DNA from: an uncultured Gammaproteobacteria bacterium
GTDB taxonomy: Bacteria; Pseudomonadota; Gammaproteobacteria; DRLM01
Direction: 5' to 3'
Assembly: GCA_963729605.1 (NCBI GenBank)
Contig: CAVSNY010000002.1
Location: 32,001 to 96,000 of the forward strand
Length of the DNA: 64,000 nt
Part shown: positions 2,919 to 19,685 of the stretch, piece after piece
Layout: every line of letters starts with the position of its first letter
Numbering within the stretch: position 1 is the stretch's first letter
Notes under the pieces: generated by a model
Database searches by the model: none
What the model was told of the DNA's origin: nothing
What the model saw: only the letters and a program-made list of their open reading frames with translations
Made by a program: the position numbers and the translations under genes

Positions 2919-5084
2919 TCAAGACACCGCCTGCAATTTGGCGTAGGCCAACACCAGCCACTTGCTGCCCGCGGCGGCGAAGTTGACCTGCACGCGCGCG
3001 CTGCTGCCCTGGCCTTCGTAATTGGTGACGACACCTTCGCCGAATGTGGCGTGCATCACGTGTTGTCCCAGCCGTAAACCGCCGGGTGGGTTTTCCGCCG
3101 CCGGCGCCGCGTAATTCGTTAAACCGGCCGGCGGTGAGATGCGCGCGTGCGACCGCACCTCGCGTATCAATTCCGCCGGAATCTCGCTCAAAAAACGCGA
3201 AGGACGCGGAAAGGTTTCACTGCCGTGCAGACGGCGGCTCTCGGCGTGGGTGAGATACAACTCGCGCTCGGCGCGGGTGATGCCGACGTAACATAAGCGT
3301 CGCTCTTCTTCGAGCCGGCCCGGTTCCTCGATCGACATCTGATGCGGAAATAAACCTTCTTCCACGCCGCAGATGAACACCAGGGGAAACTCCAGGCCTT
3401 TCGCCGAGTGCAGCGTCATCAACTGCACGCAGTCGTCCCATTGATTGGCTTGGCCTTCGCCCGCCTCCAACGCGGCGTGGGTGAGAAACGCGGAAAGCGG
3501 ATCGAGTTCGCTGTCCTCCGGCGCGGGGAATTGCCGCGCGGCGGTGACCAGCTCTTCCAGGTTTTCCACCCGCGCCTGACCGATCTCGCCCTTTTCCTTG
3601 CGGTAGTGGTCGAGCAGGCCGCTGTGATGAATGACGTGTTCAGTCTTGTCGCCCAGCTCCAATTGCGCGGTGTCGGCGGCGAGGCGTTCGATGAGATCGA
3701 CGAATATTTTTAGCGCCGAACTGGCGCGCCCCGTCAAATCGGTAGTGGCGAGCAGCATGCGGCAAGCACTGAACAGCGGGATCTGTTTTTGCCGCGCGAG
3801 ATCGCGCACCGTCGCCACCGTGCGTTCGCCGATGCCGCGGGTCGGCGTGTTCACCACCCGCTCGAACGAGGCGTCGTCGTCGCGGTTGGCGATGAGGCGG
3901 AGATAGGCGAGGGCGTCCTTGATTTCGGCGCGCTCGAAGAAACGCAGTCCGCCGTAAACGCGATAAGGCATGCCGACCGCCAGCAGCGCCTCTTCCAACA
4001 CCCGCGATTGCGCGTTGGAGCGATAAAGAATCGCCGCCTCGTCGCGGCGGTTGCCTTCCTCCGCCCAGCGCCGCAGACGTTCGACGATGAAACGCGCCTC
4101 GTCGAATTCGTTGAAGGCCGCGTAGAGCAGGATGGGCTCACCTTGTTCGCCGCGGGTCCACAGCTCCTTGCCGAGGCGGCCGCTGTTGTGACCGATCAGC
4201 GCGTTGGCCGCCTCGAGTATGGTGCGTGTCGAACGGTAATTTTCCTCGAGGCGCAACACCCGCGTGCCGGGAAAATCCTTGCTGAAACGCTGAATGTTTT
4301 CGATGCGCGCGCCGCGCCAGCCATAAATCGATTGATCGTCGTCGCCCACCGCGAACAGATAACGCGATCGCCCGCCAGCAATCGCAGCCAGGCGTATTGC
4401 AAGGTGTTGGTGTCCTGAAACTCATCGACCAGAATGTGCTGAAAGCGCTGGCGGTAGTGGGCGAGCAGCGCGGTGTTGTCGCGTAATAACTCGTGCGCGC
4501 GCAGCAGCAACTCGGCGAAATCCACCAGTCCGGCACGCCGGCAATTGTCCTCGTAAGCCTGATAAATGCGCAGCATCTGGGTCGTGAAGAGGTCGCCGCG
4601 GGCGTCGACGTGCTGCGGGCGCAGGCCCTCCTCCTTGCGGCCGTTGATGAACCACTGCGCCTGTTTGGGCGGCCACTGGGCCTCGTCGATCTCCAAGCTC
4701 TTCAGCAGGCGGCGGATCAACGCGGTATTGATCGTCGGAATCGAGGATTTGAAAGGTCTGCGGCAGATGGGCCTCGCGCCAGTGCGCGCGCAACAAACGG
4801 TGCGCGAGGCTGTGGAAGGTGCCCACCCACATGCCGCCCACCGGGATACCCAGCAGTTGTTCGGTGCGGCCGCGCATCTCGGCGGCGGCCTTGTTGGTGA
4901 AGGTCACCGCCAGCATGCCGTAGGGCGAGGCGCCCTCGACGCGGATCAGCCAGGCGATGCGGTGCACCAGCACGCGGGTCTTGCCGCTGCCGGCACCGGC
5001 GATCACCAGCACCGGCCCGGCCGGGCTGGTCACCGCGTCGCGCTGGGCATCGTTAAGGGGGTCGAGCAGATCGGAAACATCCAT
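2919..5084 (-). CDS. uvrD: DNA helicase II, split by two frameshifts (probably sequencing errors)
   Basis: Motifs AGAGSGKT, TFTNKAA, LVDEFQDTN, VGDDDQSIYGWRG, LMTLHSAKGLEFP and EEERRLCYVG are spread over three ORF pieces; +1 base near 4721, -1 base near 4362. Confidence 0.93.
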
Positions 5085-5249
5085 GGCGGGCATTTTAACA
5101 GATGCGGCGGGGGTGCCGGGGATGCGTTGAGTGTGAGGAGGAGAGGGTTGTTGGGCATTATCCCGCTTCAATCTTTTGAGTGGCAGGCCCGCATGCTGGG
5201 GGGGTGTGGGGGAGTGACGGAGCGATGCAGAAGCTTGCCCGATACCCAA

Positions 5250-5921
5250 TTAAAGCGCGTTCTGCAATAGGCTTTTTGCGACACTCTCGACGAGGCTGAC
5301 CTTGCCGTAAATTAGCTCACTATGTGCGCTGTCAGTCCTGTCGAGCATTAGGTAGGGTATCCCGAGATAGTCACAGTAGAGTTTTAATTGAGGCTTGTCC
5401 GGTTCGCCCGCATGAGCGACTAGGTGGCGAACTAATTTGCACTCGGTTCTCGGATTTGGGGGAAGGCTCGCGTCTTTATATTCTGGGTAGTCGCTAGACT
5501 CCGGAAAAGATAACTCGATAATTTGAAATAGAAGCATGATCTTTGTCATCGGGTCTTCTGCGGCTGCCGCAAGTGCCCAAAGTCGTAGTTGGATTGGAAG
5601 GATGTAGTTCCACTTCTGCGGTCCAGTTCCAGCCGGGATTGCTCCATGGATGGCCCAACTTAGCCGAAGATCGGCAGTGACACTTTTGGTCAACATTTGC
5701 GCATTCAAGCGAACGCAGGTTAGGAAGAAGAGCCGATCAAGTTCTCGATCAATCAAGTACTGTGCCGTCTTGTCCTCCTCTTGCGGTGTAGTAATTGCGA
5801 TGTATGTGCCGTCGTCTAGCGTATCGACGGTCATCGACTCCGGTAGTATCGAGCGCAATGACCGCAGATCGACGTCGAGTTTCTCACCCTTATGTATGAG
5901 ACGGAAGCGTGTTACTGGCAT
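5250..5921 (-). CDS. Hypothetical protein with a putative HEPN (RxxxxH) motif
   Basis: 223 aa; helix KIMLLFQIIE followed by RHLVAH, as seen in ApeA/MauJ-like HEPN proteins. Confidence 0.5.
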   Translation of the reverse strand: MPVTRFRLIHKGEKLDVDLRSLRSILPESMTVDTLDDGTYIAITTPQEEDKTAQYLIDRELDRLFFLTCVRLNAQMLTKSVTADLRLSWAIHGAIPAGTGPQKWNYILPIQLRLWALAAAAEDPMTKIMLLFQIIELSFPESSDYPEYKDASLPPNPRTECKLVRHLVAHAGEPDKPQLKLYCDYLGIPYLMLDRTDSAHSELIYGKVSLVESVAKSLLQNAL

Positions 5922-6074
5922 TGAAAAAATACCGCATCAATTTTGGCTCGCGGGCTGCATTTTTGTAGATATCAACGAGCCGTGCTCAACGTTCGAGGAT
6001 GCTCTTCAAAGCGGCCGTTCAAATGCATCGCCCGCACGTGATCACCTATGCTGTGCCGTATGCACTTGCTAATC

Positions 6075-8453
6075 TCACGGCACATTGGTCACCTGCACGA
6101 CGGCATTAGCCATAGTTATGTACAGCGTGGTGCCGGCTATCGAAACGCCAATTGGCAAATTCAATACGCCGGGTAACGCGCCTGGTACAAACCCTCTTGC
6201 GCCGGCTGTGCCTACAACAGTCGAGACGATCCCTGTTGGGGTGATCTTGCGGATGATGTGGTTGCCGGTATCCGCGACATATACATTACCAGCAGCATCG
6301 GTCGCGATGCCTTTTGGTCCGTTAAAGCTTGCTGCGCCTCCGATACCATCAACGTGCCCTACTACATGAGACGTGCCGGCCAGTGTCGTGACAACCCCTT
6401 CCGAGGTGATCTTACGGATGATGTGGTTGCCAGTGTCTGCAACATAAATATTCCCGTTAGCGTCGGTCGCGATGCCTACAGGAGAGACAAAACTTGCTGC
6501 CGATCCTGTTCCGTCCGCACCGTCACCCACGCAGGACAAATTAGGTCGCCAAGTAAAACCAGCCAAGGTGGTAACATTCCCAGCCGGAGTAATTTTGCGG
6601 ATGGTGCAATTGTAGGTATCCGCTACATAGATGTTGCGGTTAGGGTCTGCAGCAACACCCATGGGTGAGGAAAAACGTGCACTCGGGCCACTGCCATCGG
6701 CACTGCCTGGCCATGGCGGTGAAAAACCGGCAAGCGTCGTAACGTCCCCCGATGGGCTGATCTTGCGAATTGTGCTGTTTCCAGTGTCCGCGATATACAC
6801 ATAACCTGCATTGTCGGTCGTGACCCCACGGGGGGAAGAAAACAGTGCACCTGAAGCAGGGCCGTCGCTATTGCCATTTACCCCTGCCGCACCAGCCAGA
6901 GTTGTAACCGCGCCAGCCGGTGTGATCTTGCGGATCGTATGATTCCCGGTGTCCGCCACATAGATGTTACTGAGGCTATCGGTAGCAATGCCCGCAGGGC
7001 CCGTAAAACGCGCGGTCTCGCCTACACCGTCAGTAGTGCCAGACAAATCGGGGGCACCGGCTAGCGTAGTCGTCACACCAGCCGGCGTAATCTTGCGGAT
7101 AACATGACTGCCTCCATCCGCCACATAGACATTTCCATCGATATCAACTGCAACACCATACGGGCCTCTAAAACTCGCTGTTGCACCAACACCATCAGCG
7201 TAGCCAGCGACGCCGGCGGTACCTGCTAATGTCGTTACGATACCCTCTGAGGTTATTTTGCGAATAGTGTTGTTTCCAGTGTCCGCTACAAAGGCATTGC
7301 CATCGCGATCAATTGCAATACCTGTTGGATTTAGAAACCTCGCCGCTGCCCCAGTGCCATCGACATTTCCTCCGCCTATAGCTCCAGCCAGCGTGGTGAC
7401 AACCCCGGCCTGAGTAATTTTACGGATTTCGTTGTGGTAGACATCCGTGACATAAACATTACCAGCTGCGTCGGTAGCAACAGCGGACGGGATAAAAAAA
7501 GAAGCCGGTGAATGAAGATCGATGTAAGTGGTCCCCGCCAGTGTCGTGACTACTCCCTCTGGCGTGATTTTGCGGATATTATGGTTGCCGTAATCCGCGA
7601 CGTAAATGTTTCCATGAATGTCGGTAGCAATGTCTACTGGCGAATGAAAACTAGCGGCTGCGCCGATGCCATTAGCGCTACCAGTTATACCTGCGGTCCC
7701 CGCCAATGTGGTAACTACACCGAGTGAGGTGATCTTGCGAATGGTGTGGTTGCCCTGATCTGCCACATAGATGTTTCCGCTAGTGTCAGTCGCAATCCCC
7801 GCAGGAATTTCAAAACGCGCGGCGCCGCCAATTCCATCAGCACTACCCATCGCTCCTGCGGAGCCAGCCAATGTCGTGACGACCCCCGTCGGCGTAATCT
7901 TGCGGATAACATGATTTCCTCCATCCGCCACATAAATATTTCCATTTCCATCCGTGGCAACAGCGTGCGGAAGGTCAAATCGCGCTGCTGTGCCATTACC
8001 ATTGGTATTGCCTGCGCCACCCGGATTTCCCGCTAGCAGCGATAGCACTGGAAGCGTTACACAGGTCACGACTATATTTGTGACGTTCGCATCAGCTATG
8101 GCACCGGAGCCATTTGTTATGGTGCAGTTTTGACCCGTCGGCGATATACCAATGGCTACGCCGTATGCGGAGCCGGAACTCAAAGTCGTCGCAAATTGAA
8201 AAGGTCCATCGGCGTTTAGATTGAGCTCATCGTAGCCATTGTTGCGAAACGCGACCGTGCCCTCTAACCCGATATGGTACCGCCTACGGTATAGCTGGAA
8301 TTAGAACCAGCACCGCCGCCGCACGCCGCAAGCCCGAACAACGCAATCAGGATGAGAACTAAGAAACAGCAACTCGTGCGCTGTGACGCTCGCGCACGAG
8401 AGCCGCTGGCTCGGTAGAGAGCCTCGTCCAAGCACACGGGAATTGCATGCATG
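6075..8453 (-). CDS. NHL-repeat beta-propeller lipoprotein; frameshift near 8266 separates the lipobox from the body
   Basis: About 12 repeats of GIATDxxGNIYVADxGNHxIRKITPxGVVTTLAG. The upstream ORF has LIALFGLAAC-GGG and YTVGGTISG, which continues in another frame as LEGTVAFRNNG...GSAYGV. Start codon uncertain. Confidence 0.8.
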
Positions 8454-8644
8454 TCAGAAATAATCGTATTATTTTCATTGTGATATTTTAAGGAAATATA
8501 CCGCGGATGATCGTGATCTCGCAAGGGCAACCCCTTCGCGACGGCGGTGAATTACCGGTCGTTTGCCGCGAGCTGCGGTTCGATCATCCGCTTCGCGCGG
8601 CCTTAACTCCAACGTTGAGCCTGTAGAAAACCCATTTTCGCATC

Positions 8645-9111
8645 TATACTGCTCGCTCAACTGTCAGAAGAGCTTGAGCAGAAAGATGCTGGATCGGCAG
8701 ATCAAAAATCAGTGAGCTCAAGATGAGCGCATCAGACGCTGATGGCGCTCGAAGGTGTCGGCCCCATCAGCGCCAGCGCGCTAGTCTCAGCCATCGGTGA
8801 TGCTCGCCAGTTCAAGAGTGGCCGGGATCTCGCCGCCTGGTTGGGGCTGGTTCCCAGTCAACACTCCAGTGGTGGCAAGGAGCGATTGGGGGCGATCTCA
8901 AAGCGCGGCGACACATACCTGCGCACCTTGTTGATTCATGGAGCACGCGGTGATCAGCAGCTGCGAAAAGAAAGAGGATCTTAAGAGCCAATGGTTCAAA
9001 GGAATCATGGCGAGGCGCAACAAGAATATCGCCACGGTAGCGCTTGCCAATAAAAACGCCCGTGTTATCTGGGCGGTTCTCAGTCGCGGTGAAAATTATC
9101 AGCCGGCCTGA
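8645..9111 (+). pseudogene. IS110-family (IS1111-type) transposase C-terminal remnant
   Basis: GVGPISASAL, LAAWLGLVPSQHSSGGK, ISKRGDTYLRTLLIHGAR; after a frameshift, NKNIATVALANKNARVIWAVL. The N-terminal DEDD domain is absent. Confidence 0.88.
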
Positions 9112-9397
9112 GAGGGTGGGCGCATTGTAAGAAATAGGTTTTGCAGGAGAAGGAGCGTTCCACCACGATTGCAGAGTGAATTGTATTGATGACAACCGGT
9201 CGAACCGGCACGTGTGAAACCTGACTATTGCGTGGGCCCTCTGGAAACAAGGCCGCTAGGGCGATCAGCTACACGTGAGTGGATATTCATTATGGCTCTG
9301 GGTATAAGCACCCTATACAGAAGCCGGATATACGGAAGCAGTCGTACTTGGGTTGTCAGAAAAACAGTTTGTTTGCAAAACGGGAGGAGTCCATATA
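9112..9397 (+). ncRNA. IS1111-type downstream non-coding region (seek/bridge RNA) ending in the right sub-terminal inverted repeat
   Basis: ~285 bp after the transposase stop with nested stems (CACGTGT 9209/ACACGTG 9271, CTGA/TCAG, GGCC/GGCC); ends GGGAGGAGTCCATAT at 9382-9396, typical of IS1111 right ends. Confidence 0.65.
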
Positions 9398-9513
9398 CAC
9401 AATAATCAAAGGGCATTGCGCCCTACGCGCTTAGAGTAACAAACAGAGAACAAGGCGCGGAATAGTGAGGGCATACGCCACGACTTACCTTTTATGTGTT
9501 CCCTAAGTGAGGG

Positions 9514-10623
9514 TTAGGCGATTGAAGTCAGCGCATAGCTGGTGCTTCGACCGCCTCCCGGTTCGCGCACGAGAATACCCCTACTGATGAGGTCGTTGAT
9601 GTCGCGCAAAGCGGTATCGGGCGAAGACTTTGTAAGCTGCGCCCATTTGGAAGACGTCATCTTGCCTTCAAATCCATCCAGCAGTCGATTGACAATTTTG
9701 CGCTGACGCTCATTAAGCGGATGATCTTTGAACGTCTCCCAAAACCGCGCCTTTTGAATGACGCCCGCAAGCGTCTGCTCCGCTCCTTCGATTGCGCGGT
9801 CAAGGCATTCCAAGAACCATTCCAGCCACGCGGTGATATCGAGAGCGCCCTTCTGCGTGGCTTCCAGAACGTCGTAATAGGCTTTGCGCTCAAGCCGGAT
9901 TTGCGCCGACATGCTGTAGAAGCGCTGCGGGCTTTGCTCGGACCGCGCCAACGCCATATCTGCAATGGCGCGCGCAATCCGCCCGTTTCCATCGTCAAAC
10001 GGGTGGATGGTGACAAACCATAAATGCGCTAGGGCGGCCTTGAGCACTGGATCGTGCGAGGTGTCTTCGCCGAACCATTTTAGGAAGGCCGCCACTTCTG
10101 ATTCAAGGCGAGACGCTTTTGGCGCTTCGTAATGCACACGCTCGCGCCCGATTGAGCCGGAGACGACCTGCATCGGACCTGAGCTATCGTCGCGCCACGC
10201 CCCGACGATGATTTTGGTCATGCCGCTGCGCCCGGTCGGGAACAGGGCGGCGTGCCATGCAAAGAGCCGTTCGTCCGTCAGCGGCGCTTGAAATTTCTGG
10301 GTGGCGTCAAGCATCATTTCCACGACGCCTTCGACGTTCCGGTCAGCTGGAGCAAGTGCGCCGATATCCATCCCGAGCCGTCGCGCGATGGACGACCGGA
10401 CTTGTTCCTTATCGAGTATCTCGCCTTCGATCTCGCTGGACTTGAGAACATCCTCCGTGAGGGTGGCGAGGACGGCCTCCGCGCGCAAATCGAATCCCAG
10501 TGCTTCCATTCGCCCAATCAGCCGCCCCTGCCGATGGCGAACTGGTGCAAGGCGCTGAGCCAGCGCCCCTTCGTCCCATCGGAAATTCGGCCAATCTTGC
10601 AATTCGTGGATATACGTCGGCAT
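9514..10623 (-). CDS. Fic family protein (DUF4172 N-terminus, C-terminal HTH)
   Basis: Canonical HPFDDGNGRIAR; N-terminal inhibitory SSEIEG; YIHELQDWPNFRWD start; C-terminal TALRDINDL...GGRSTSY. Confidence 0.9.
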   Translation of the reverse strand: MPTYIHELQDWPNFRWDEGALAQRLAPVRHRQGRLIGRMEALGFDLRAEAVLATLTEDVLKSSEIEGEILDKEQVRSSIARRLGMDIGALAPADRNVEGVVEMMLDATQKFQAPLTDERLFAWHAALFPTGRSGMTKIIVGAWRDDSSGPMQVVSGSIGRERVHYEAPKASRLESEVAAFLKWFGEDTSHDPVLKAALAHLWFVTIHPFDDGNGRIARAIADMALARSEQSPQRFYSMSAQIRLERKAYYDVLEATQKGALDITAWLEWFLECLDRAIEGAEQTLAGVIQKARFWETFKDHPLNERQRKIVNRLLDGFEGKMTSSKWAQLTKSSPDTALRDINDLISRGILVREPGGGRSTSYALTSIA

Positions 10624-10722
10624 TCTCCGCACCTCTTGCGGAGATTATGGCTGATATTCACCGCAAGCCGCAAGGTTAATCTCCGCAAAATATGCGGAGA
10701 TTATGGCCAATATTCGCCGCAG
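10623..10722. promoter_or_regulatory. Tandem (56-bp period) palindromic operator-like repeats upstream of fic
   Basis: TCTCCGCA-N6-TGCGGAGATTATGGC..ATATTC.CCGCA occurs at ~10624 and ~10680. Confidence 0.55.
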
Positions 10723-10989
10723 AGGTAAGGTTTTTGGGTATTTGCGGGTCCACGGGCAAAACTGGCGACAGGCACTCCTACTTATCTTTGCCCCAAGAAA
10801 GGCTGCGCCAGCTATCGCAAATCCAGTCGCCGCACCGATCTCGAAGGGGCTTCGACGCTCTTATTGCGGGGATGCAGCGCTATAGTTCCACGCTGCCATA
10901 GCTCATCCTCGGATGATGTATCCTTCGAATTTAATAGAATTAACTGCAAGAACTTTTGCATTAACATCCGATCCGCATGTAAATGAAGG

Positions 10990-11976
10990 ATGAAAAAATT
11001 GACCGATAAAACTGGCGATGGACTGCTAGAGTCGGCCCCTCTTAGTGATGGGCCACCATTGGCGATAGTGCTGAATTTAAAAGGGGGGCACGACGATGGC
11101 GAGGAGCGTATCGCCCTCATTAGCCACCTGCTCGAAGAAGCAGGACGGCCACATCAGTTATTCACGCCAGACGATCCGACCCAATTGCCCGATAAAATCC
11201 GGCAAGCCGTGGCGTGGGCGTAACAACGCAAGGGTGCCTTGGTGGCTGCCGGCGGTGATGGCACCATTAACTCCGTGGCACATGCCGCGGTGCCCAACGG
11301 CTGTCCTCTAGGCGTTTTGCCGCAAGGTACGTTCAATTATTTTGGTCGGGCACACGGCATCCCGACCGATATCGAGCAAGCCATGCAAATTCTGTTGAAG
11401 GCGAGGCCGCGTCCCATACAAGTGGGTTTGCTGAACGATCGGATATTTTTGGTCAACGCGAGCTTAGGTTTATATCCGAAGCTGCTCGAGGACCGCGAGG
11501 AGTTCAAAAAACACTTGGGGCGCAGCCAATTTGCTGCGATGGTCGCGGCGTTTTGGACGATATTACGCTCGCCTAATGACTGGTTGATTGAATTGGAATC
11601 GGAAGGCAAGGCGGTGATCGCGCATACCCGCACGTTATTCGTTGGCAACAACCAACTGCAGTTGGAGCAAATCGGCATTCCTGAAGCCAGCGAGGTGAAC
11701 CGCGGCAAGCTGGCCGCGGTGATGGTAAAGCCGGCGGGGCGACTTGCGATGTTGGGGCTTACGCTGCGCGGCGCGCTTGGCCGGTTGGGCGACGCGGATC
11801 AAGTGCGGCATTTCGCCTTCACCAAACTCATCGTAAGACCGCGCATAGGTTCTCGAGTACGGCATATCCAAGTCGCTACCGACGGCGAGCTGCTACGGCT
11901 TACGACACCGTTGGTTTTTTCCGTGAGCCCTATCCCGCTGCAGTTGCTTGCGCCACCGGACTCAGGCTCGGCATGA
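10990..11976 (+). pseudogene. Diacylglycerol-kinase (YegS-like) family protein interrupted by an in-frame TAA at 11221
   Basis: ORFs 10990..11223 and 11239..11976 share a frame; AAGGDGTIN, LGVLPQGTFNYF and ATDGE motifs. Confidence 0.75.
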
Positions 11977-12770
11977 CAGTACTGTTGCAAATATCGGATC
12001 CGCACTTCGGGACCGAGCTGCCCGAAGTGCTGGCGGCCTTGAACCGCTGGGTAACCGAACAGCGTCCGGACGTTATGCTCTGGTCCGGAGACATCACCCA
12101 GCGAGCGCGCCGAGAGCAATTCGCCGCGGCCCGGCGTTTTGCCAATGCACTGGCGGTGCCGCACTTATTGGCGATTCCCGGCAATCACGACATACCCCTC
12201 TACAATATGGCGGCGCGTCTATTCCGGCCGTACCATAATTACATGCACAGTTTCGGAGAAGTATTGGAGCCCGAGTTCAATAGCGAAGAACTGCTGATCA
12301 TCGGGGTCAAGACCACGCGCCGTTGGCGGCACAAACACGGCGAAGTATCGCATGAGCAAATCGACCGCGTTGCGCAGCGCCTGCAACGCGCGCAGTTGCG
12401 GCAACTGCGGGTAGTGATGACGCACCAGCCCTTGCATGTGCTTACGGAACGAGAGATCAACAATCGTTTGCGCGGTGCGGACGCGGCGATAACCGCATGG
12501 GCCGAGGCGGGCGCCGACTTGGTGCTGGGGGGCCACATACACTTGCCTTACTGCCGCAAACTCGATATTGCTGCCCGGCCGCTATGGATCGTACAAGCCG
12601 GTACCGCTCTGTCTTCACGCGTGCGGAGCGGCATCCCCAATTCGGTTAACCTCATCCGCTACGAGCCTGCAATGACGCCTTTGCAATGCAATATTGAGCG
12701 CTGGGACTTCGATGCTACGGGGCAATGCTTCAGTCTCATTGAGCGCACCCAGGCCATGCTCGAACGTTAA
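11973..12770 (+). CDS. Calcineurin-like metallophosphoesterase
   Basis: ISDPHFG, SGDITQRA, IPGNHD and LGGHIH motifs; ATGA overlap with the upstream gene. Confidence 0.88.
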   Translation: MTVLLQISDPHFGTELPEVLAALNRWVTEQRPDVMLWSGDITQRARREQFAAARRFANALAVPHLLAIPGNHDIPLYNMAARLFRPYHNYMHSFGEVLEPEFNSEELLIIGVKTTRRWRHKHGEVSHEQIDRVAQRLQRAQLRQLRVVMTHQPLHVLTEREINNRLRGADAAITAWAEAGADLVLGGHIHLPYCRKLDIAARPLWIVQAGTALSSRVRSGIPNSVNLIRYEPAMTPLQCNIERWDFDATGQCFSLIERTQAMLER

Positions 12771-12972
12771 CCCGGCATCTGCCAAGAAACCCCGCGATTA
12801 TCTTGGCGTGGCCTTTTGAGTGACGCTATGAGGCCTTACTTGGAATGGCGCACATAGGGGGAGTTTGTTCAAGCCAGATTTTGGCCGACTGGTGCATGAT
12901 TGTGAGAGACTTGCGCTCTGAAAATTAAAAAGTCCATTTCCCCGAAAGCCCGGCTCGAAGAGCGTGCCAAAA

Positions 12973-14610
12973 TTACAGAATGACGACGTTGGTGGGTTTT
13001 ATGCCATAAACAGACTCAAAAGAGCGCTCGGCGAAGGCCTGAATCTCGTCATCTGTCCCTTTTTGCGAAAGCCAGCGATAGGCATATTTGAACGGACCCG
13101 GCTGCGTGATCCACTGGCGCGTGAGATCAAAAATTACGTTATGCGCATAGAAATCATCGAACGCCTCTTTGATATCGCTCTCGCTGTGCCCGCTATGGAG
13201 CCTTGGATACACGCCGTCATCGTCTTCCTTATCGACGAACAATGCGCCGTGACGGTCAAAAAGCGTCGCGGCATCCTGTGAAACGCGCTGCCCGGCCATC
13301 CAGGCGCCCGGCCAGCAGAAGAACTCCGGGCGAGCAAACTTGTCGCGCATGAACGCAAGAAAATGGGCAAAAATGATTCTGACCGCTACATTGCGCTTCT
13401 CGAACCGGAATGCCGCGTGCTCGGACATCAGCGGGGAAAATTCCGGTAACTCGACCCAGCGAGAAAACTCTCCCGCGACTTCCAGCGGGGAGTGCTCGAT
13501 CATCGCACCACATAGTTTCCGGCTGACCGCGTCATATTCTTCGCGCGAGTATTCCCGGATGGCGTCCATGACTTCAGGGTGTTTGAAGCGGGCCAACCTG
13601 CATAGCCAAACAAAGCGCGCCCCCGGCTCGATATCCGTTATGAAGCTTGGATAATGCACGAGCGGAAATGGAAAACCCGATCCCGGATTAAGCGCCACAT
13701 CGCAGATCAGCAAAAACAGCCCGATGGTGGGGTGATCTATGGAAGGCGGTCGTTCAAGTTCCGTAAAGTGAAGAAAAACAGCAAACGCTTTTCCATAGAC
13801 GCCGTCGAACATCCCCATTTGCTCGGCGGTCTCCATGCCGAGCAAGCCGCCCGTTGCGAAATGAAGATATTGAAGCTGAGCCATGCGGGCCTGACCTTCG
13901 AATATTTCATACGCGCCGATCGGATAAAGCGAGATCGGTGAGCCGTAATAGTACCCTTCCTCTTCCGCCTCGCGGAGCTTGCGAAACGGCTCGCTCCACT
14001 CTTTGGGATGGGGAATGATGCTGAACGCACGGTCCGAGACCGAGGCGATCAGACTGCTGATGTTGCTATACGCAATGCTGTAGGCGTGGCCGAGATTTTC
14101 GAATTGCGGATTCTGCACGATATCGTTTGCCGAAAGCGGGTTAACAGTCAGGCCTCGAAATGCCTCCATGTCGAAATGATTGTTGATTATGATATTGACT
14201 AGGCCGCCCGGTGTTCCATAGCCGCCGCCCGGCAAAACGTCGGCCAGATTGCGGATAGACTTCTTGAACCCGACGCTGACGATAAGGTTCTTGAGATGAT
14301 CGTAATTGGCGTGCGCCTGCGCCGGATAGGTCATGCTTAGCATGAGGCCGTAGGTCGACCCGACATGCTGCCACCAATGAACCGTCTCGTGCAGAAACGT
14401 CGAGAACGCCTGAACGCCTTCGAGATCAATCATCCCGGAATTGACTATGCCGCTGGGCATAGACGTGAGCTTTCGGTGGACAGCTGGCGAGAGCCGCAGA
14501 ACAAACTGAAAGGTGTTGTAGAGCCCATGCCCTTTCAGCGTCGCGGCAAAGAGTCCCTGACTGGCAAGCGGGCTATAATCGTTGAGTAGCTCAGGTTGGG
14601 GAATCTGCAT
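12973..14610 (-). CDS. Uncharacterised ~545 aa protein with HExxH zincin motif
   Basis: FLHETVHWWQH plus a downstream EIFEGQA (possible third zinc ligand). The ATG at 14610 overlaps the end of the upstream gene. Confidence 0.6.
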   Translation of the reverse strand: MQIPQPELLNDYSPLASQGLFAATLKGHGLYNTFQFVLRLSPAVHRKLTSMPSGIVNSGMIDLEGVQAFSTFLHETVHWWQHVGSTYGLMLSMTYPAQAHANYDHLKNLIVSVGFKKSIRNLADVLPGGGYGTPGGLVNIIINNHFDMEAFRGLTVNPLSANDIVQNPQFENLGHAYSIAYSNISSLIASVSDRAFSIIPHPKEWSEPFRKLREAEEEGYYYGSPISLYPIGAYEIFEGQARMAQLQYLHFATGGLLGMETAEQMGMFDGVYGKAFAVFLHFTELERPPSIDHPTIGLFLLICDVALNPGSGFPFPLVHYPSFITDIEPGARFVWLCRLARFKHPEVMDAIREYSREEYDAVSRKLCGAMIEHSPLEVAGEFSRWVELPEFSPLMSEHAAFRFEKRNVAVRIIFAHFLAFMRDKFARPEFFCWPGAWMAGQRVSQDAATLFDRHGALFVDKEDDDGVYPRLHSGHSESDIKEAFDDFYAHNVIFDLTRQWITQPGPFKYAYRWLSQKGTDDEIQAFAERSFESVYGIKPTNVVIL

Positions 14611-15283
14611 CGGTCTTCCCCTGCTTGGTTTTCGCCGCGCTCGCTTTTGGAAACGGGAGAAAGGAATGGCGAACATGAATGGTGTTGCCGCTGCCAGGCC
14701 GTACATGGTCGGTCGAAAAACGTTCGATTGTACTGACCGTCGCGCCGGGAGATGGCGATCCTACCATGCCGACATCAACTTTGTTGGCTTCGATAGCTGC
14801 TTTGACTCGCGACAATGCGAAGTCCGTATCCCCGTCAAGGACATAACCAAGCATGCAACCGACTGGCAGGCCGTCTGCGTATTGCTCAGTGATAAATCGC
14901 TTTAGGCCCTGGTTGACATAGGGCGTGGCGAGGCTTTGCCGTGCCCCATTGTAGGGGACATTTAGGCGTTTGCACTCATAGGCGAGATAGCGCGTGCAGC
15001 CCTGATCGAGAAGAACCGCCAGATCGATTTGCCCCTTGCTGAACGCGAGTCCCTCGGGTGTAAAGCCCTCCGGCTCAAACTGATATGCAAGATGGTGGAA
15101 TATCTGTCTCGCCTCGGAATCTTTGACCAACACGCTTCTGAGGTTGAACGTAATGGCGTCCTCTTCCGGGCTTGGGGGTAGTACGGCGAGACATTCCGGC
15201 CACAACGCGTATATACGCGCCAGTAGTCGGTCATCGATCGAAATGAAGTGCTCTGCCCAATGGCTCGGATCCCCAACCACCAT
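14591..15283 (-). CDS. Putative PD-(D/E)xK restriction-endonuclease-fold protein
   Basis: EEDAIT...GQIDL...YLAYECKRL...QGLKRFITEQYA...GCMLGYV. ATG overlaps the MTase stop (TAATG). Confidence 0.6.
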   Translation of the reverse strand: MVVGDPSHWAEHFISIDDRLLARIYALWPECLAVLPPSPEEDAITFNLRSVLVKDSEARQIFHHLAYQFEPEGFTPEGLAFSKGQIDLAVLLDQGCTRYLAYECKRLNVPYNGARQSLATPYVNQGLKRFITEQYADGLPVGCMLGYVLDGDTDFALSRVKAAIEANKVDVGMVGSPSPGATVSTIERFSTDHVRPGSGNTIHVRHSFLPFPKASAAKTKQGKTDADSPT

Positions 15284-18200
15284 TACTGAGCGCTGCCCCG
15301 CTTCTTGGGTGAGCCCAAATAATCCTGAAGGTCGAGCGCGATAGCGTGCGCGTCTGCAAGCGCCGATGAGCGTAGCCAAAACCGCTTTTGCATTGGTTTG
15401 ACGATATAAAGATCATCACCCTCAAAAATCCTGAAGTCCGGCATGACCTGGAAGTTTCCAGGCAGCGGCTGGTGAATGCTCTCAAACAACTTCGCCAGCA
15501 CGTCGCGAACGGCCGAGTTATTGACCTCTCGATAAGCAGTGATCGCTTTTTTCTTTCGAAGCGACAACCGGACCACTGCAAGATCAGCGTTATGCGCTTC
15601 CAAACTCACGTCGATGGCGCGCTCCTCGCGCAGCCATCCGGTCAATGCGTGTACCAAGGCATCGGCATACGCTATCCGCTCTGTCGCAGAAGATGTTTTC
15701 CAGATCGCGGGCAAGCTGCCCTGATGTGGCTGAACGGCAGGAAGAATAAACTCGACCTCGTCTTCGATGAGCGTAACTTCATCCGGAGAAAGACAGAAAT
15801 ACTCGTAAGCGCACGCATCAACCTTGGCGAAAACCTCGGAGCCACCGCCTTGAAGAGCGAACTCACTTTGCGCGGCGTTTAGCGCTAAGTCGACAATGCC
15901 CACCAAAGCCTTTGCTGCTTTGCGTGCTCGCTCAGGTTCTGGAAGATCGGATGGCTCCGGAAATGGCAGCCGCATCAACTCGGCTTGCTGGACCTCTGGA
16001 CGATCCGAACCGAGCGAAGCCGTGCCATGAAACGCAAACCAGATCGCTACCTTGCTGTTAAGCAGTGCAGCCAAAATCTTTGCTCGGCGCTCGCATCCCT
16101 GCGGAACCACGATTGCCTGAATAATGTGCTGGAAGGTAAGCGGCTGCTCGACATAGCTGGCACGCAATCGCTTCGACACGACGCTCACGCCGCGAGGTAC
16201 AAGAACTCGCGGACCTTTTTCAAACCCTCTTTCGAAGCCTTTTCTCCGTACGCGGGAGGAATGCCAGGGAGTGAGTCCGGCGACACCTTGAGCCAACGGC
16301 TGAAACTGCGCGATCGGAAGATCGGGCTGCTTAGATACGTAGTCGCTCATGTGATACGAGCTGCCACTGGACGCATTGTATGGCTGGTAACCTTGCCCGA
16401 TCATCCAGCCATCAGCAGCATCTGTCGCCCTGCGGCTCTGGCTTCCGAAGTCGGTGATCAGATCGCCGAGTGTCGGCAGCCGTGACAGGTATGCGAAGAG
16501 CTTCGCGTCGGGCTCTGACATCCACAGGCGGCGCTTGAATATCAAAGGGTCCGATAGCGCCGCCTTGGAGGTAATGAAGCTCTTGTCTGCGCTGCTGAGT
16601 GTAATCAGCCGCTTCACCTTTAGGTTCAGATCAGCTTTTGGCGCCCAATATTCGAAGCGGTACAACGCCTGCCCCGGCGCTGCGTTCCCGAAAATTATCA
16701 ATGTTGCGGGCCGGATTGCGCCGTCGAAGAGCTGAAAACGCAAGTCGGCAAAATTGATGACCCGGCGAATCCGGGCTTTCTCAATCAGCCTGTTCCGCGC
16801 GTCAACGGACGTGTCTGCATGATTATGCAGAAAGCCCATTGCCGGAAGAAGGAAGGCGACCACACCGTCCACGCTAAGATGTTCGATCGATTTCCATGTA
16901 AACGCCCAAGCGTCTTCTTTTCCTGGCATCGGGAGATGGCGCTGCGCGCACCATTGCATCGATGAGCGATTAGGGCCTCGGCGGCTCGTCCAGGGCGGAT
17001 TGCCTATCACCACGTCAAAACGCGTCCTATCCGGCTCGACACTGAAGAAGTCCTGACACCGCAGGGTCTTGCCCCATAACTCAGGCAGGACTTTTCCGCG
17101 CTTTATGAGCTGGCGGATATCGGGCGGACTGACCTGTTCGAGCAAAGCGATGTAAAGAGAGAAGACAGCAACCCGCACGGCGCTGCCATTCAAATCCCAT
17201 CCGTTCAGGCGGGCCAGAATATTCTTGAGGCTGTCCCAACGGATGGTGCGCGCTTTGTGCGTTTCGCGCCAGTGTTCACAAAGGCGCTGAAACGAACGAA
17301 CGAGAAAAACACCGGAGCCACACGCCGGGTCTAGAAACTCTCCCTTGTCTCTGACGCCACCGGGTAGCGTTTCCCAAACTTGAGAGACGACGGTATCCGC
17401 CAAAAACATTGGCGTGTAGTACGCTCCAGTCTCTCTTCTTTCGGCCTCTCGTTCACCGAGGAACCGATCATACACGGCACTGATGAGCTCGATGGGGATA
17501 TGCTTGAAATTGTAGCCCCAAAACCGGAGCTGGCCAGCAGCCATTTCCTCTTGTCCTAGCCGGAAGCGCTCTAAAACGGCCAGGTGCTCGCGGGAAACGC
17601 GCGGCGGATGTGCATTCGGTTCAAACGAGCACGGCGCAACGAAGAGGTCGCCATTGAAATCCTGCCTCAAGGCATCGAAAAGTCGCTTGAGCGCGGATAC
17701 GCTTCCGGAGAGAAGCAATGCTGAAAAGCTTTCGACGCCTACGCCAGCCGCGTCTTTGAAGTATTCTTTGCCGATGATCTCCCGGTCTTCCAGATAGGCA
17801 ATGAACATCGCTTGTATAAGCAATGCCTGCGCGGCATCTGATGAAAGCTTAGCCTCGCACAAGAGGCCATGAGCGCTGGTCAGATTTTCAAGGAGAACTT
17901 GATCGACGCGCTCCTTGGGTTTGAAAAACTCGGCATGCTCTTCCCAGAACCTGCCGGATTCAGCACCATAGATCATGTTCTTGAGCGCCAAGGCGTCGGC
18001 GGTCGCGCTCAGCGTCTTCACAAGGCAGCGCCGTTCAAACTCGTCTCCGGGATTTGAATAGGGCGTGCAAGAAAGAGAGAATGCGCGAACGGTGTCGCTC
18101 GTGATAACGAGTAGCAGGCTGGCGAGACCCTGATTCCAAAGTGCGGCATGCAGACTGATAATCTGATTCCGGTCGTACTGCTCAAGATTTGCGATGACGA

Positions 18201-18390
18201 TCGTGGGCACGCCTTGGACGCAGAAGACGGCTGATGCGCCCAGCCCCTCCAGTGTCGCGCGGATCGCGCCTGCGTGTGGGCTGTTTCGAACCGTCTCCAC
18301 GTTTTCATAAAGTTCCGGCGCGTCCCGGTCAGTGAGATCGAGGCGCTTCTTCCAGATGTCTTCTAGTCTGCGTGAGCGAATGGTGGTCAT
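15283..18390 (-). CDS. Large N6-adenine DNA methyltransferase with target-recognition region (type IIG/Eco57I-like architecture)
   Basis: GAYYTP, LDPACGSGVFL (motif I), VIGNPPW (motif IV), and a TaqI-C-like LAALLNS...LMRLPFP region; 1035 aa. Confidence 0.85.
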   Translation of the reverse strand: MTTIRSRRLEDIWKKRLDLTDRDAPELYENVETVRNSPHAGAIRATLEGLGASAVFCVQGVPTIVIANLEQYDRNQIISLHAALWNQGLASLLLVITSDTVRAFSLSCTPYSNPGDEFERRCLVKTLSATADALALKNMIYGAESGRFWEEHAEFFKPKERVDQVLLENLTSAHGLLCEAKLSSDAAQALLIQAMFIAYLEDREIIGKEYFKDAAGVGVESFSALLLSGSVSALKRLFDALRQDFNGDLFVAPCSFEPNAHPPRVSREHLAVLERFRLGQEEMAAGQLRFWGYNFKHIPIELISAVYDRFLGEREAERRETGAYYTPMFLADTVVSQVWETLPGGVRDKGEFLDPACGSGVFLVRSFQRLCEHWRETHKARTIRWDSLKNILARLNGWDLNGSAVRVAVFSLYIALLEQVSPPDIRQLIKRGKVLPELWGKTLRCQDFFSVEPDRTRFDVVIGNPPWTSRRGPNRSSMQWCAQRHLPMPGKEDAWAFTWKSIEHLSVDGVVAFLLPAMGFLHNHADTSVDARNRLIEKARIRRVINFADLRFQLFDGAIRPATLIIFGNAAPGQALYRFEYWAPKADLNLKVKRLITLSSADKSFITSKAALSDPLIFKRRLWMSEPDAKLFAYLSRLPTLGDLITDFGSQSRRATDAADGWMIGQGYQPYNASSGSSYHMSDYVSKQPDLPIAQFQPLAQGVAGLTPWHSSRVRRKGFERGFEKGPRVLVPRGVSVVSKRLRASYVEQPLTFQHIIQAIVVPQGCERRAKILAALLNSKVAIWFAFHGTASLGSDRPEVQQAELMRLPFPEPSDLPEPERARKAAKALVGIVDLALNAAQSEFALQGGGSEVFAKVDACAYEYFCLSPDEVTLIEDEVEFILPAVQPHQGSLPAIWKTSSATERIAYADALVHALTGWLREERAIDVSLEAHNADLAVVRLSLRKKKAITAYREVNNSAVRDVLAKLFESIHQPLPGNFQVMPDFRIFEGDDLYIVKPMQKRFWLRSSALADAHAIALDLQDYLGSPKKRGSAQ

Positions 18391-18851
18391 CGTCCACCCC
18401 TCTTGAGCGAACGCGCGCTGCGCTGACGGGGCGGCGTGGTCCTAAGAGGCACATTCGCCTGTCCATTGAGGAGATCAGATTGAAGCAACTGGATGAGCGG
18501 CTCCAGCGCACACACGACGATCAGATCAGCGTCCGGCAACCGGGAATCGCATACAGCCACGCAGGAAGCTTGTTGCAGGTCGATGACGAAATGTTTGCCG
18601 CGAAGCCCTTTCCAATCGGAGCTATTGCAGACCTGAAAAATCGCCGGAGCTATATTAGAAAGGTGTCCGATTCGGACCCCGATTGTATCAGTAAGTCTTC
18701 TCAGAGCCGCTGAGGCGAGAACGTCACCCGGCGAAAAACTCGGCGCGTGGCCACGTCCGTTTGCAAATGCGGGAACCACCCGCTTCCAATGGCGAAATGC
18801 CTCTTTGGAAAGCCCCACTGTGTCCCGTAACTGACCTGGCGTGTAAAACAA
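18387..18851 (-). CDS. MerR-like/HTH DNA-binding protein
   Basis: FYTPGQLRDTVGLSKEAFRHWK helix-turn-helix pattern; its stop overlaps the MTase ATG (ATGA); TTG start. Confidence 0.6.
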   Translation of the reverse strand: MFYTPGQLRDTVGLSKEAFRHWKRVVPAFANGRGHAPSFSPGDVLASAALRRLTDTIGVRIGHLSNIAPAIFQVCNSSDWKGLRGKHFVIDLQQASCVAVCDSRLPDADLIVVCALEPLIQLLQSDLLNGQANVPLRTTPPRQRSARSLKRGGR

Positions 18852-18875
18852 GTTGCCTGCACCTTGTTTGAGTGT

Positions 18876-18917
18876 TGTTGACCCCCAACTATGAATCAGG
18901 GGCGGTTAACAGGTCAA
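18876..18917 (-). promoter_or_regulatory. Putative sigma70 promoter with overlapping inverted repeat for the four-gene operon
   Basis: TTGACC-N18-CATAGT on the minus strand; TGTTGACC/GGTTAACA arms flank the -10. Confidence 0.35.
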
Positions 18918-18961
18918 TCACAAGCTCTTTTTTGTTCAGGGGCGCGGGATAAGTAGGGTTC

Positions 18962-19335
18962 CAAAGGGCGCAACGAGATCGAGACACAAATCGAAACCCT
19001 TCTGGATTGCATCATGGAGGGCTAGAGCGAAACCCTTTTCGCCAGCTATGAGTGGCGGATCGAAAAGCGTGAACGCGAAAAGCTGCTTCTGAATGAAAAA
19101 CTCAGCGCTCATGCCAAGCCACGCCCAAGACCATCGCAAGAGTTCGAACCCGCGCTGGGATCACTCAAAAACCCAATGAGTCTGTGGCGTTCGCACGATC
19201 TCGCTCGCAAGCAAGCGGTGGTGAAGATGCCGTTGCCGAGCGTCCGGCGTACAAAAACAAAATCGGTGTTCGAACCCCAATTTATGCCAGTCCTGTCAAT
19301 GCACTAGCTGCAATCTTAGACGGGAAAAAGCAAAA
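18962..19335 (+). pseudogene. C-terminal remnant of a large serine recombinase reading into the tRNA 3' end
   Basis: Translation EIETQIETLLDCIMEG*SETLFASYEWRIEKREREKLLLNEKL...LKNPMSLW...KQAVVKM/AERPAY..GVRTP resembles the C-termini of tRNA-targeting serine integrases; contains a stop and a frameshift. Confidence 0.6.
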
Positions 19336-19412
19336 TGGCGCGCCCGGCGGGATTCGAACCCACGACCTTTGGCTTCGGAGGCCAACACTCTATCCAGCTG
19401 AGCTACGGGCGC
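19336..19412 (-). tRNA. tRNA-Arg(CCG)
   Basis: GCGCCCGTAGCTCAGCTGGATAGAGTGTTGGCCTCCGAAGCCAAAGGTCGTGGGTTCGAATCCCGCCGGGCGCGCCA; 77 nt, anticodon CCG, encoded CCA. Confidence 0.97.
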
Positions 19413-19685
19413 GTTATTTGACATGGAACGGGGGCCGTTCCCCCGCAGCGGGGTTGCCTTGGCGGCCTCGCGCCATGAGGCGGTGCGGCGCGCGAGTCGA
19501 GCAGGGGCTGCGGGCCGCTAAGGATACCCGCTGGGTCCTTTGCCGTCTACAGCGTGAGGGGCGGGCGAGGCCGATGTTCACTGAATGCGGCCGTCGCAAG
19601 CCGTTAGCGGAGATATTGAACAGATGGGCCGTGGTTGCCGCGTCGCGCCATCCTCCGGCGTAACGGCCAATCAAGTAGCGCGCCG

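Follow-up and report, generated by a model that had tools for sequence, protein, structure and literature searches.

Here we describe a group of four adjoining genes in a stretch of 64,000 nucleotides (nt) from an uncultured Gammaproteobacteria bacterium (assembly GCA_963729605.1, contig CAVSNY010000002.1, positions 32,001 to 96,000); this whole stretch is called the window below. The genes code for a small protein, a large N6-adenine methyltransferase (MTase), a stand-alone nuclease and a protein with an HExxH motif. A first-pass annotation had read all four as a candidate for one undescribed defence operon. In the order of transcription, the features are:

18876-18917, minus strand: candidate operator and promoter-like site upstream of the first gene
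18387-18851, minus strand: first gene, 154 residues, TTG start; probable DNA-binding autoregulator
15283-18390, minus strand: gamma-class N6-adenine MTase, 1035 residues, with a build like that of type IIG/IIL enzymes
14591-15283, minus strand: stand-alone PD-(D/E)xK nuclease, 230 residues; presumed restriction subunit
12973-14610, minus strand: HExxH protein, 545 residues, all-alpha and soluble; independent defence-island gene
19336-19412, minus strand: tRNA-Arg(ccg), a landmark at the edge of an island of low GC content (GC), given as context only and outside the system

The four open reading frames (ORFs), at 12973-18851 on the minus strand, are all intact, and each overlaps the next. When the junctions are read letter by letter, the first gene and the MTase gene share ATGA at 18390-18387 (a 4-nt overlap) and the MTase and nuclease genes meet in TAATG at 15285-15281 (a 1-nt overlap). 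The nuclease gene stops with TGA at 14593-14591 and the HExxH gene starts with ATG at 14610-14608, which gives an overlap of 20 nt. The first-pass annotation had described four apparently intact, overlapping genes on one strand, and this description holds in all coordinates and in the letters of the junctions.

Two of the frames could be longer. The nuclease is counted as 230 residues from its ATG, and a longer ORF is possible from a TTG at 15379. The HExxH ORF could extend to 14706; 545 residues were chosen, the length of its family. For the first gene, which starts with TTG, the N-terminus of the product aligns with that of relatives that start with ATG (17 sequences).

Among the four proteins, only the MTase has a named library match. 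Pfam finds N6_Mtase (E 1e-16), Eco57I (1.7e-12) and MmeI_Mtase (6.9e-07) in it, while NCBIfam gives sub-threshold matches of PglX type only. The PADLOC model PDLC03623, REase_MTase_IIG, matches at E 4.6e-80 and aligns residues 12-1027 with profile positions 8-1018 of 1022. The S-adenosylmethionine (SAM) motif DPACGSG (354-360) and the catalytic GNPPW (463-467) are invariant in 22 relatives. The protein has the gamma-class N6-adenine MTase core of a type IIG enzyme, with SAM motif and NPPW. Further, by the full-length PADLOC match, it has the target-recognition region in the same chain and the overall architecture. From the N-terminus onwards it is built of a domain without catalytic residues, a helical spacer, the MTase core, the target-recognition region and a C-terminal region.

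The part of a type IIG enzyme that is not found in this chain is the endonuclease site. The absence of a D...ExK motif from the N-terminal region had been pointed out in the first pass, and the alignments of 22 and 46 family members bear it out: no D, E or K is invariant in residues 1-120. When residues 1-300 were aligned by hhalign to nine MmeI-like N-termini, which do carry ID...E-x-K, only the helical spacer (171-254) was matched, with a probability of 14.7% and E 0.0018. Pfam MmeI_N has no match in the genome of the window, whereas 35 genomes in the search set of 301 do have one. By language-model features, residues 1-295 resemble the MmeI_N/MmeI_hel clusters (19 of 30 named matches, score 0.94), and in the Protein Data Bank (PDB) the kinship to MmeI is confined to the MTase core (5hr4, E 0.0016).

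The most fitting description of the N-terminal domain therefore seems to be that of a docking or nuclease-like domain devoid of a catalytic site, and as far as can be read from its sequence the MTase would be incapable of cutting by itself. Since no acidic residue or lysine is invariant in this N-terminus, cutting is most likely performed in trans, by the nuclease.

The nuclease motif does lie in the separate gene of 230 codons, as had been proposed. In 16 sequences with 52-68% identity to the protein of the window, E70, D87 and E103-C-K105 are invariant, that is, a PD-(D/E)xK motif with an upstream acidic residue. The protein collection holds 762 homologues, none of them named except for one 'Mrr domain' label. 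A profile search of the PDB gave no match. At E <= 10, Pfam found nothing but YugN, in 6 of 16 members with a best E of 0.026, which was taken as chance. Neither the nuclease nor the first gene nor the HExxH protein has a match in PADLOC, Pfam, NCBIfam or PHROGs, in line with the earlier statement that no named system could be recognised here.

The neighbourhoods of these genes were studied in two sets of loci: 80 metagenome loci fetched via the nuclease and 80 genome loci, from many phyla, fetched via the HExxH protein. The MTase adjoins the nuclease in 77 of the nuclease-anchored metagenome loci; of the three exceptions, each is either a fragment or cut off by the end of its contig. In the 400 genomes of the phylum that were searched with the PADLOC MTase model, three further genomes were found, all three with the nuclease directly downstream. 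Even at locus L166, where the MTase and the nuclease are only 32% and 30% identical to those of the window, the pairing is kept.

The overlaps between the genes are more than chance, for they recur in the relatives. Between the MTase and nuclease genes the spacing, stop to start, amounts to -1 nt at 50 of 75 loci and -4 nt at another 6, and between the first gene and the MTase it is -4 nt (ATGA) in 35 of 40. The conserved unit is the MTase plus the nuclease. This agrees with the split restriction-modification (RM) arrangement that had been suggested: the MTase is free of a nuclease motif, and a separate PD-(D/E)xK gene is its constant, translationally coupled neighbour. It does not agree with the four genes being one system: when neighbourhood conservation was checked, only the MTase and the nuclease were constant.

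The cassette is present on three plasmids, of Mameliella alba (conjugative), Bradyrhizobium elkanii (mobilizable) and Sagittula (conjugative). In two of these plasmid records the RefSeq labels of its three genes are hypothetical, N-6 DNA methylase and hypothetical. Among 40 relatives of the genome of the window, the cassette was found in a single genome of the same genus, with 98% identity and at the end of a contig; two other genomes of the genus and eight of the same family gave no match. Its presence on plasmids and its patchy distribution among relatives indicate a horizontally moving module.

On the Bradyrhizobium elkanii plasmid pBel61 (L163, 7980-12110), the three-gene cassette is directly followed by a protein of 1376 residues labelled 'Eco57I restriction-modification methylase domain-containing protein', and beyond it by a N1pC/P60 hydrolase and then a helicase. 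With the 1376-residue protein, another large system based on methylation may have been added behind the cassette.

The first gene is a frequent part of the cassette, not a universal one: of the 52 cassette loci that reach far enough upstream, 40 have it. A profile search of the PDB with its product gave nothing. Upstream of it, a GGGG-N4-CCCC palindrome is found in 25 of 34 distinct regions, at -50/-49 from the start codon in 20 occurrences and at -37 to -34 in 5, against 34 matches in the 775 kb of all loci taken together. In the subclade of the window a split-arm form takes the place of this palindrome. The window itself has a promoter-like TTGACC-18-CATAGT at 18917-18888, upstream of the first gene, the count of promoter-like sites in the region being not above that in shuffles. 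The -10 box of this site is flanked by the two arms (18911-18899, 18886-18876) of an imperfect inverted repeat, which is a candidate operator for the first gene product.

Since the palindrome keeps a fixed position upstream of the gene, the first gene product is probably an autoregulator. By its position the palindrome would suit the operator that a controller protein (C protein) has at its own promoter. The small Xre-type helix-turn-helix (HTH) of such proteins was not detected, there being no match to Pfam HTH_3 or to the PADLOC Control_protein models, and the product does not belong to the classical C-protein family.

The HExxH gene behaves differently from the MTase and the nuclease. It is independent of the cassette, moves by itself and lives in defence islands. 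In 78 of the 80 genome loci it occurs without MTase and nuclease; the two linked loci are L003, a metagenome-assembled genome of Hoeflea with the full cassette, and L004, where a nuclease gene adjoins the HExxH gene at the start of a contig. Among the 80 metagenome loci the HExxH gene is linked to the cassette in three. Seen from the other side, 63 cassette loci have downstream DNA that can be judged (at least 600 nt), and 58 of these are without HExxH gene. The HExxH gene thus occurs in other genomes without MTase and nuclease, which the first-pass annotation had itself named as a refuting observation; its membership of the system is not supported, and neither is the role of regulator or back-up effector that it had been given there. 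The idea of a CapH/CapP-type pair of HTH protein and peptidase fares no better, since the first gene and the HExxH gene occur together in only one of the 80 genome loci and one of the 80 metagenome loci.

In a tree of 78 nuclease sequences, the five cassettes linked to an HExxH gene fall in one well-supported clade of eight. The same clade holds three unlinked cassettes, among them L085 and L086, which have no HExxH gene, and 55 unlinked rows lie elsewhere on the tree. The HExxH gene was captured recently by the cassette, in one shallow clade only. In a quick tree of 71 HExxH proteins the nearest to that of the window, with 79% identity, is from Brucella gallinifaecis (L002, 6700-12554). There the gene stands between a gene with a T5orf172/MUG113 domain and a SIR2-APAZ protein of 851 residues, of short-Argonaute type (PADLOC 4.3e-138).

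No neighbour family is shared by the HExxH loci in general: the largest cluster of ORFs of at least 70 residues spans 5 loci. A small partner ORF was not found either, the largest cluster of frames of at least 30 residues within 700 nt spanning 5 of 81 loci. Of the 144 genes directly next to it, 26 match PADLOC models (E <= 1e-5), among them SIR2-APAZ, an SpbK-like TIR protein, SoFic, type I R/M/S subunits, Old, GajA/GajB, SduA, BovA, PD-T7-5 and several PDC candidates. In Pfam terms T5orf172, ArdA, integrases, zeta toxin, AbiJ and HNH, among others, are found among the neighbours.

A different setting is seen on the Pantoea eucalypti plasmid pEuc3 (L170, 5989-7650), where a homologue with 36% identity stands between a PAAR-domain gene and genes labelled as capsid, phage tail and baseplate. 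This context hints at cargo of an injected or contractile system rather than at a defence island.

The HExxH family is large, with at least 722 homologues of about 545 residues, all labelled hypothetical. A full HMMER search gave 540 clusters at 50% identity, of which the best 150 are the same family or fragments of it. Eight plasmid records contain the family, and none of 50,697 phage records does. H74-E75-x-x-H78, H82 and an E238-G-Q-A element are invariant, and H82 and E238 are candidates for the third metal ligand.

The model of the HExxH protein is confident and all-alpha, with a predicted local distance difference test (pLDDT) of 79.5 and a predicted template modelling score (pTM) of 0.85. 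A membrane protein was ruled out, the maximum hydropathy over 19 residues being 1.42. Pfam found nothing at E <= 0.1 and, with 16 members, nothing at E <= 10; a profile search of the PDB returned nothing relevant, and Foldseek searches of the PDB and BFVD with the model returned nothing at E <= 0.001. The best row of a VIA wide search was a G-protein-coupled receptor at Z 5.1, which is helical-bundle noise, and the M1 aminopeptidase 1z1w at Z 4.1 is within noise. In the Atlas only unnamed clusters of the protein's own kind were found.

Taken together, we lean towards reading the locus as two separate things: a two-subunit RM cassette with its autoregulator, and an independent HExxH passenger. 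In such a cassette the MTase would recognise its target by its own recognition region and methylate adenine, and so mark self DNA. The catalytic residues of its N-terminal domain would have been lost, or would never have been present. The DNA would be cleaved by the small PD-(D/E)xK protein from the next, translationally coupled gene. This nuclease would most likely act only once it is recruited or activated by an MTase bound to unmodified foreign DNA, in the way that Res relies on Mod in type III systems or, in heterodimeric type IIS enzymes, a small subunit relies on its large partner. The first gene product would bind the palindrome at its own promoter and, like a controller protein, set how strongly the entire operon is expressed. 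The HExxH protein, a predicted metal-dependent hydrolase, would have a defence-related role of its own outside the RM machine; its gene would have landed behind the nuclease gene in one shallow clade and be co-transcribed there.

A number of observations weigh against this reading. Synteny, motifs, overlaps, the palindrome and the independence of the HExxH gene are observations, and methylation, cleavage in trans, recruitment, autoregulation, defence and any activity of the HExxH protein are predictions from them. The AlphaFold2 model of the nuclease has a pLDDT of 67 (pTM 0.71) that falls below 50 around D87. With this model, the top four rows of a VIA wide structural search were the type II restriction enzymes BglII and BstYI (Z 6.3), OkrAI (5.4) and BamHI (5.2), and a second VIA search again placed OkrAI first at Z 5.4; Z values of 5-6 are inside the noise range stated for the tool. 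A Foldseek search of the PDB gave nothing at E <= 0.001. Because the structural scores lie within noise, the assignment of the nuclease rests mainly on the invariant motif and the neighbouring genes. No fused form of nuclease and MTase appeared in a search for longer forms, which by the tool's own description is weak evidence. The recognition region of the MTase is not hypervariable, and thus the MmeI-like pattern of one nuclease with many specificities is not seen.

Other points concern the first gene and the HExxH gene. The first gene is missing in 12 of the 52 loci, one of which has an unrelated coupled ORF and eleven none at all. It had been called an HTH gene in the first pass. The conserved upstream palindrome does argue for DNA binding; the fold itself is suggested only by marginal MerR/MerR_1 matches in Pfam (3 of 17 members, E 0.013-0.036). 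That the HExxH gene is enriched among defence genes is a judgement and not a statistic, as there was no control set of genes, and some of the PADLOC models (GajB, HTH models) also match housekeeping relatives. Further, L003 shows the same overlap of 20 nt between the nuclease gene and the start of the HExxH gene as the window does, and the two genes abut or overlap in L084. The 20-nt overlap implies that the HExxH protein is expressed together with the cassette here, which leaves room for a local functional tie.

The binding of the two subunits was addressed by a complex prediction for MTase residues 1-575 and the nuclease, with the 460 C-terminal residues of the MTase outside the job. It gave a score of 0.00 twice, the controls were not run, and it carries no weight for or against binding.

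The main rival to a split RM system is an ordinary type II system. Here the nuclease would be a homodimeric type IIP-like enzyme of 230 residues with a specificity of its own, the MTase would merely protect the same site, the first gene would code for the controller, and there would be no complex and no recruitment. The nuclease could indeed be self-sufficient: both its size and its best structural rows suit type IIP enzymes such as BglII, BstYI, OkrAI and BamHI, although the Z-scores of these rows (5.2-6.3) are of the kind that falls within noise. The absence of a fused form fits independent type II enzymes as well. Further, the nuclease and the recognition region of the MTase diverge about equally (mean pairwise identity 0.56 and 0.58), as would be expected if both keep one specificity. 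However, a chain of 1035 residues with an extra N-terminal domain, an MmeI-like spacer and a C-terminal region goes far beyond what the mere protection of a site asks of a methylase. The gene order is also fixed, an overlap of 1 or 4 nt is found in 56 of 75 loci, and the pairing persists down to about 30% identity, which points to stoichiometric co-production of MTase and nuclease. We regard the ordinary type II system as a serious but minority prospect.

A wider proposal concerns both parts of the locus. The HExxH protein would be a new stand-alone metallohydrolase of defence, or an accessory to defence, with an unsolved fold. Its gene would come as the last gene of unrelated defence operons and, by its translational coupling to the nuclease gene, be a working add-on here, for instance a second-line effector when restriction fails. 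At the same time the dead N-terminus of the MTase would dock or arm the nuclease in trans, so that the cassette is a type IIG enzyme taken apart. The operons with the HExxH gene in last place would be those of TIR, OLD, STAND-nuclease, type I R, Gabija-like helicase and, here, the split RM cassette. As a whole we hold this proposal to be doubtful.

The four-gene system of the first pass, with the HExxH protein as a protease that regulates the RM module or serves as back-up effector in abortive infection, we consider improbable. It is consistent with the overlapping or abutting genes of the window, L003 and L084, with the persistence of the linked arrangement in 5 loci of one clade and with the invariance of HExxH, H82 and E238. 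About 11 HExxH and nuclease homologues with matching longest contigs even suggest further linked pairs. Yet all but two of the 80 HExxH loci are without the cassette and 58 judgeable cassette loci are without HExxH gene. The nearest HExxH relative (L002) stands in a different defence context, two cassettes of the linked clade itself (L085, L086) lack the gene, and the protein matches neither CapP nor IrrE nor any other peptidase family.

It is likewise improbable that the cassette is not primarily a defence system but a post-segregational addiction module stabilising plasmids or islands, or an MTase that is mainly an epigenetic regulator: its presence on two conjugative plasmids and a mobilizable one and in only 1 of 40 relatives would suit this, but one and the same RM activity underlies both addiction and defence, so that the purpose changes and the mechanism does not, and the surroundings are of defence type (Fic in the window and on pKUB112, the large Eco57I-domain protein on pBel61).

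The island in which the genes lie stands out by its composition, as GC is 0.53-0.58 across 5-19 kb and mostly 0.60-0.67 on the flanks (0.58 in the bin at 1-2 kb). No integrase was found among the 14 flanking ORFs scanned, nor a direct repeat of the tRNA end within 4000-19420. The first pass had called the island decaying, and this is true in part only. A UvrD-type helicase is split in two ORFs on the minus strand, 2919-4349 and 4422-5249; the upstream one covers positions 1-113 of the N-terminal-domain profile and the downstream one 246-271 and the C-terminal domains. With its middle missing it is a broken gene or an assembly error, and it sits in high-GC DNA at the far edge of the island. The clearest sign of decay inside the island is an ORF like diacylglycerol kinase (11239-11976, plus strand), which is probably truncated at the N-terminus, as its DAGK_cat match covers only profile positions 60-123 of 125. 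On the other hand, the Fic, metallophosphoesterase and NHL-repeat ORFs of the island look whole.

The whole Fic/DUF4172 gene is found at 9514-10632 on the minus strand. Two direct repeats of 42 nt, 81% alike and 56 nt apart, lie at and just upstream of its start (10624-10721) and are possibly an operator pair. A Fic homologue that neighbours the HExxH gene in L014 matches PADLOC SoFic, and on the Mameliella plasmid pKUB112, too, the cassette has a Fic gene in front of it. The NHL-repeat gene (6075-8183, minus strand), within the low-GC island, codes for a beta-propeller protein of 702 residues, and in its DNA a unit of 143 nt is repeated to a total of nine copies, with a spacing of 165 nt in most cases. 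Elsewhere in the window, ARAGORN finds a tRNA-Pro(ggg) at 58269-58361 on the plus strand, with the anticodon at position 38; its length of 93 nt exceeds that of most tRNAs.

Because the MTase matches REase_MTase_IIG from end to end, automatic tools would probably file it, and with it the locus, as a complete type IIG enzyme, while the sequence points to cutting by an unannotated gene of 230 codons. If this is true, a widespread class, with 762 nuclease homologues and a presence on plasmids and islands, is mis-described. The nuclease would then also show how nature has divided a restriction enzyme into two subunits, a programmable one for targeting and methylation and a detachable one for cleavage. 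The conserved palindrome offers a control circuit that can be tested directly. The HExxH family, unannotated and tied to defence islands, with its 540 clusters, is a reasonable candidate for a new single-gene system, and it is a more open question than the cassette.

Finally, the genes can be compared with known systems. With the type IIG/IIL enzymes of the MmeI, BpuSI and Eco57I families the MTase shares the large single chain, the gamma-class N6-adenine MTase core with NPPW, a helical spacer with an NG-x-LF-like signature, and recognition and C-terminal regions in the same polypeptide. In these enzymes, according to two papers, an N-terminal endonuclease domain is joined to the MTase and recognition parts (PMC2582602, PMC3185434). 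Type IIG enzymes cut by the PD-ExK motif of their own N-terminal domain, at a fixed distance from the site and with stimulation by SAM, whereas here the catalytic motif is in a separate gene. A limited full-text search of an open-access library turned up no description of a type IIG-like MTase with a separate small nuclease.

MANTIS/Gao_RL resembles the cassette in the self-marking by methylation, in an MTase for short asymmetric sites and in a separate nuclease effector triggered by DNA recognition (bioRxiv 10.64898/2026.09.23.753747). According to the same preprint it depends on a helicase-nuclease, a co-regulator and an AAA+ ATPase, and the cassette has none of the three. No MANTIS Gao_RL model is among the best 25 of 61 PADLOC matches. 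The cassette is not MANTIS/Gao_RL.

The first gene resembles the genes of C proteins in that it is small, stands first and has at its promoter a conserved palindrome whose distance from the start codon is fixed. However, classical C proteins are of Xre type and about 80-100 residues long, whereas this product has 154 residues and its marginal matches are of MerR type. Like Lit and the CapP/IrrE-like zincins, the HExxH protein has an invariant HExxH, further His and Glu residues that possibly bind metal, and a residence in defence islands. Unlike them it is an all-alpha protein of 545 residues without a match to a peptidase family and without a partner HTH gene elsewhere. Neither it nor the first gene product matches any PADLOC model at E <= 0.1, capH and capP included.

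Two further classes keep the nuclease in a subunit of its own. In the heterodimeric type IIS enzymes (BspD6I, BtsI, BsrDI) the large subunit recognises the DNA and is the partner of a small nuclease subunit that cannot target DNA by itself, and N.BspD6I (2ewf, Z 4.1) and its small subunit (2p14, Z 4.0) are among the weak structural rows of the nuclease. The difference is that their large subunit is an active nickase without MTase, while here the large subunit is an MTase and apparently dead as a nuclease. In type III systems (Mod and Res) the MTase subunit carries the specificity and a separate nuclease subunit depends on it. The likeness to these is in the way of working only, with the specificity in the MTase subunit and a nuclease subunit that is presumed to be dependent. 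Res has a helicase/ATPase motor, whereas the nuclease of 230 residues has none; further, the MTase has a type IIG build and is not Mod-like, and there is no ATPase gene in the cassette. By analogy, then, the cassette would work as a dismantled type IIG enzyme would, or as a type III system that lacks its motor.

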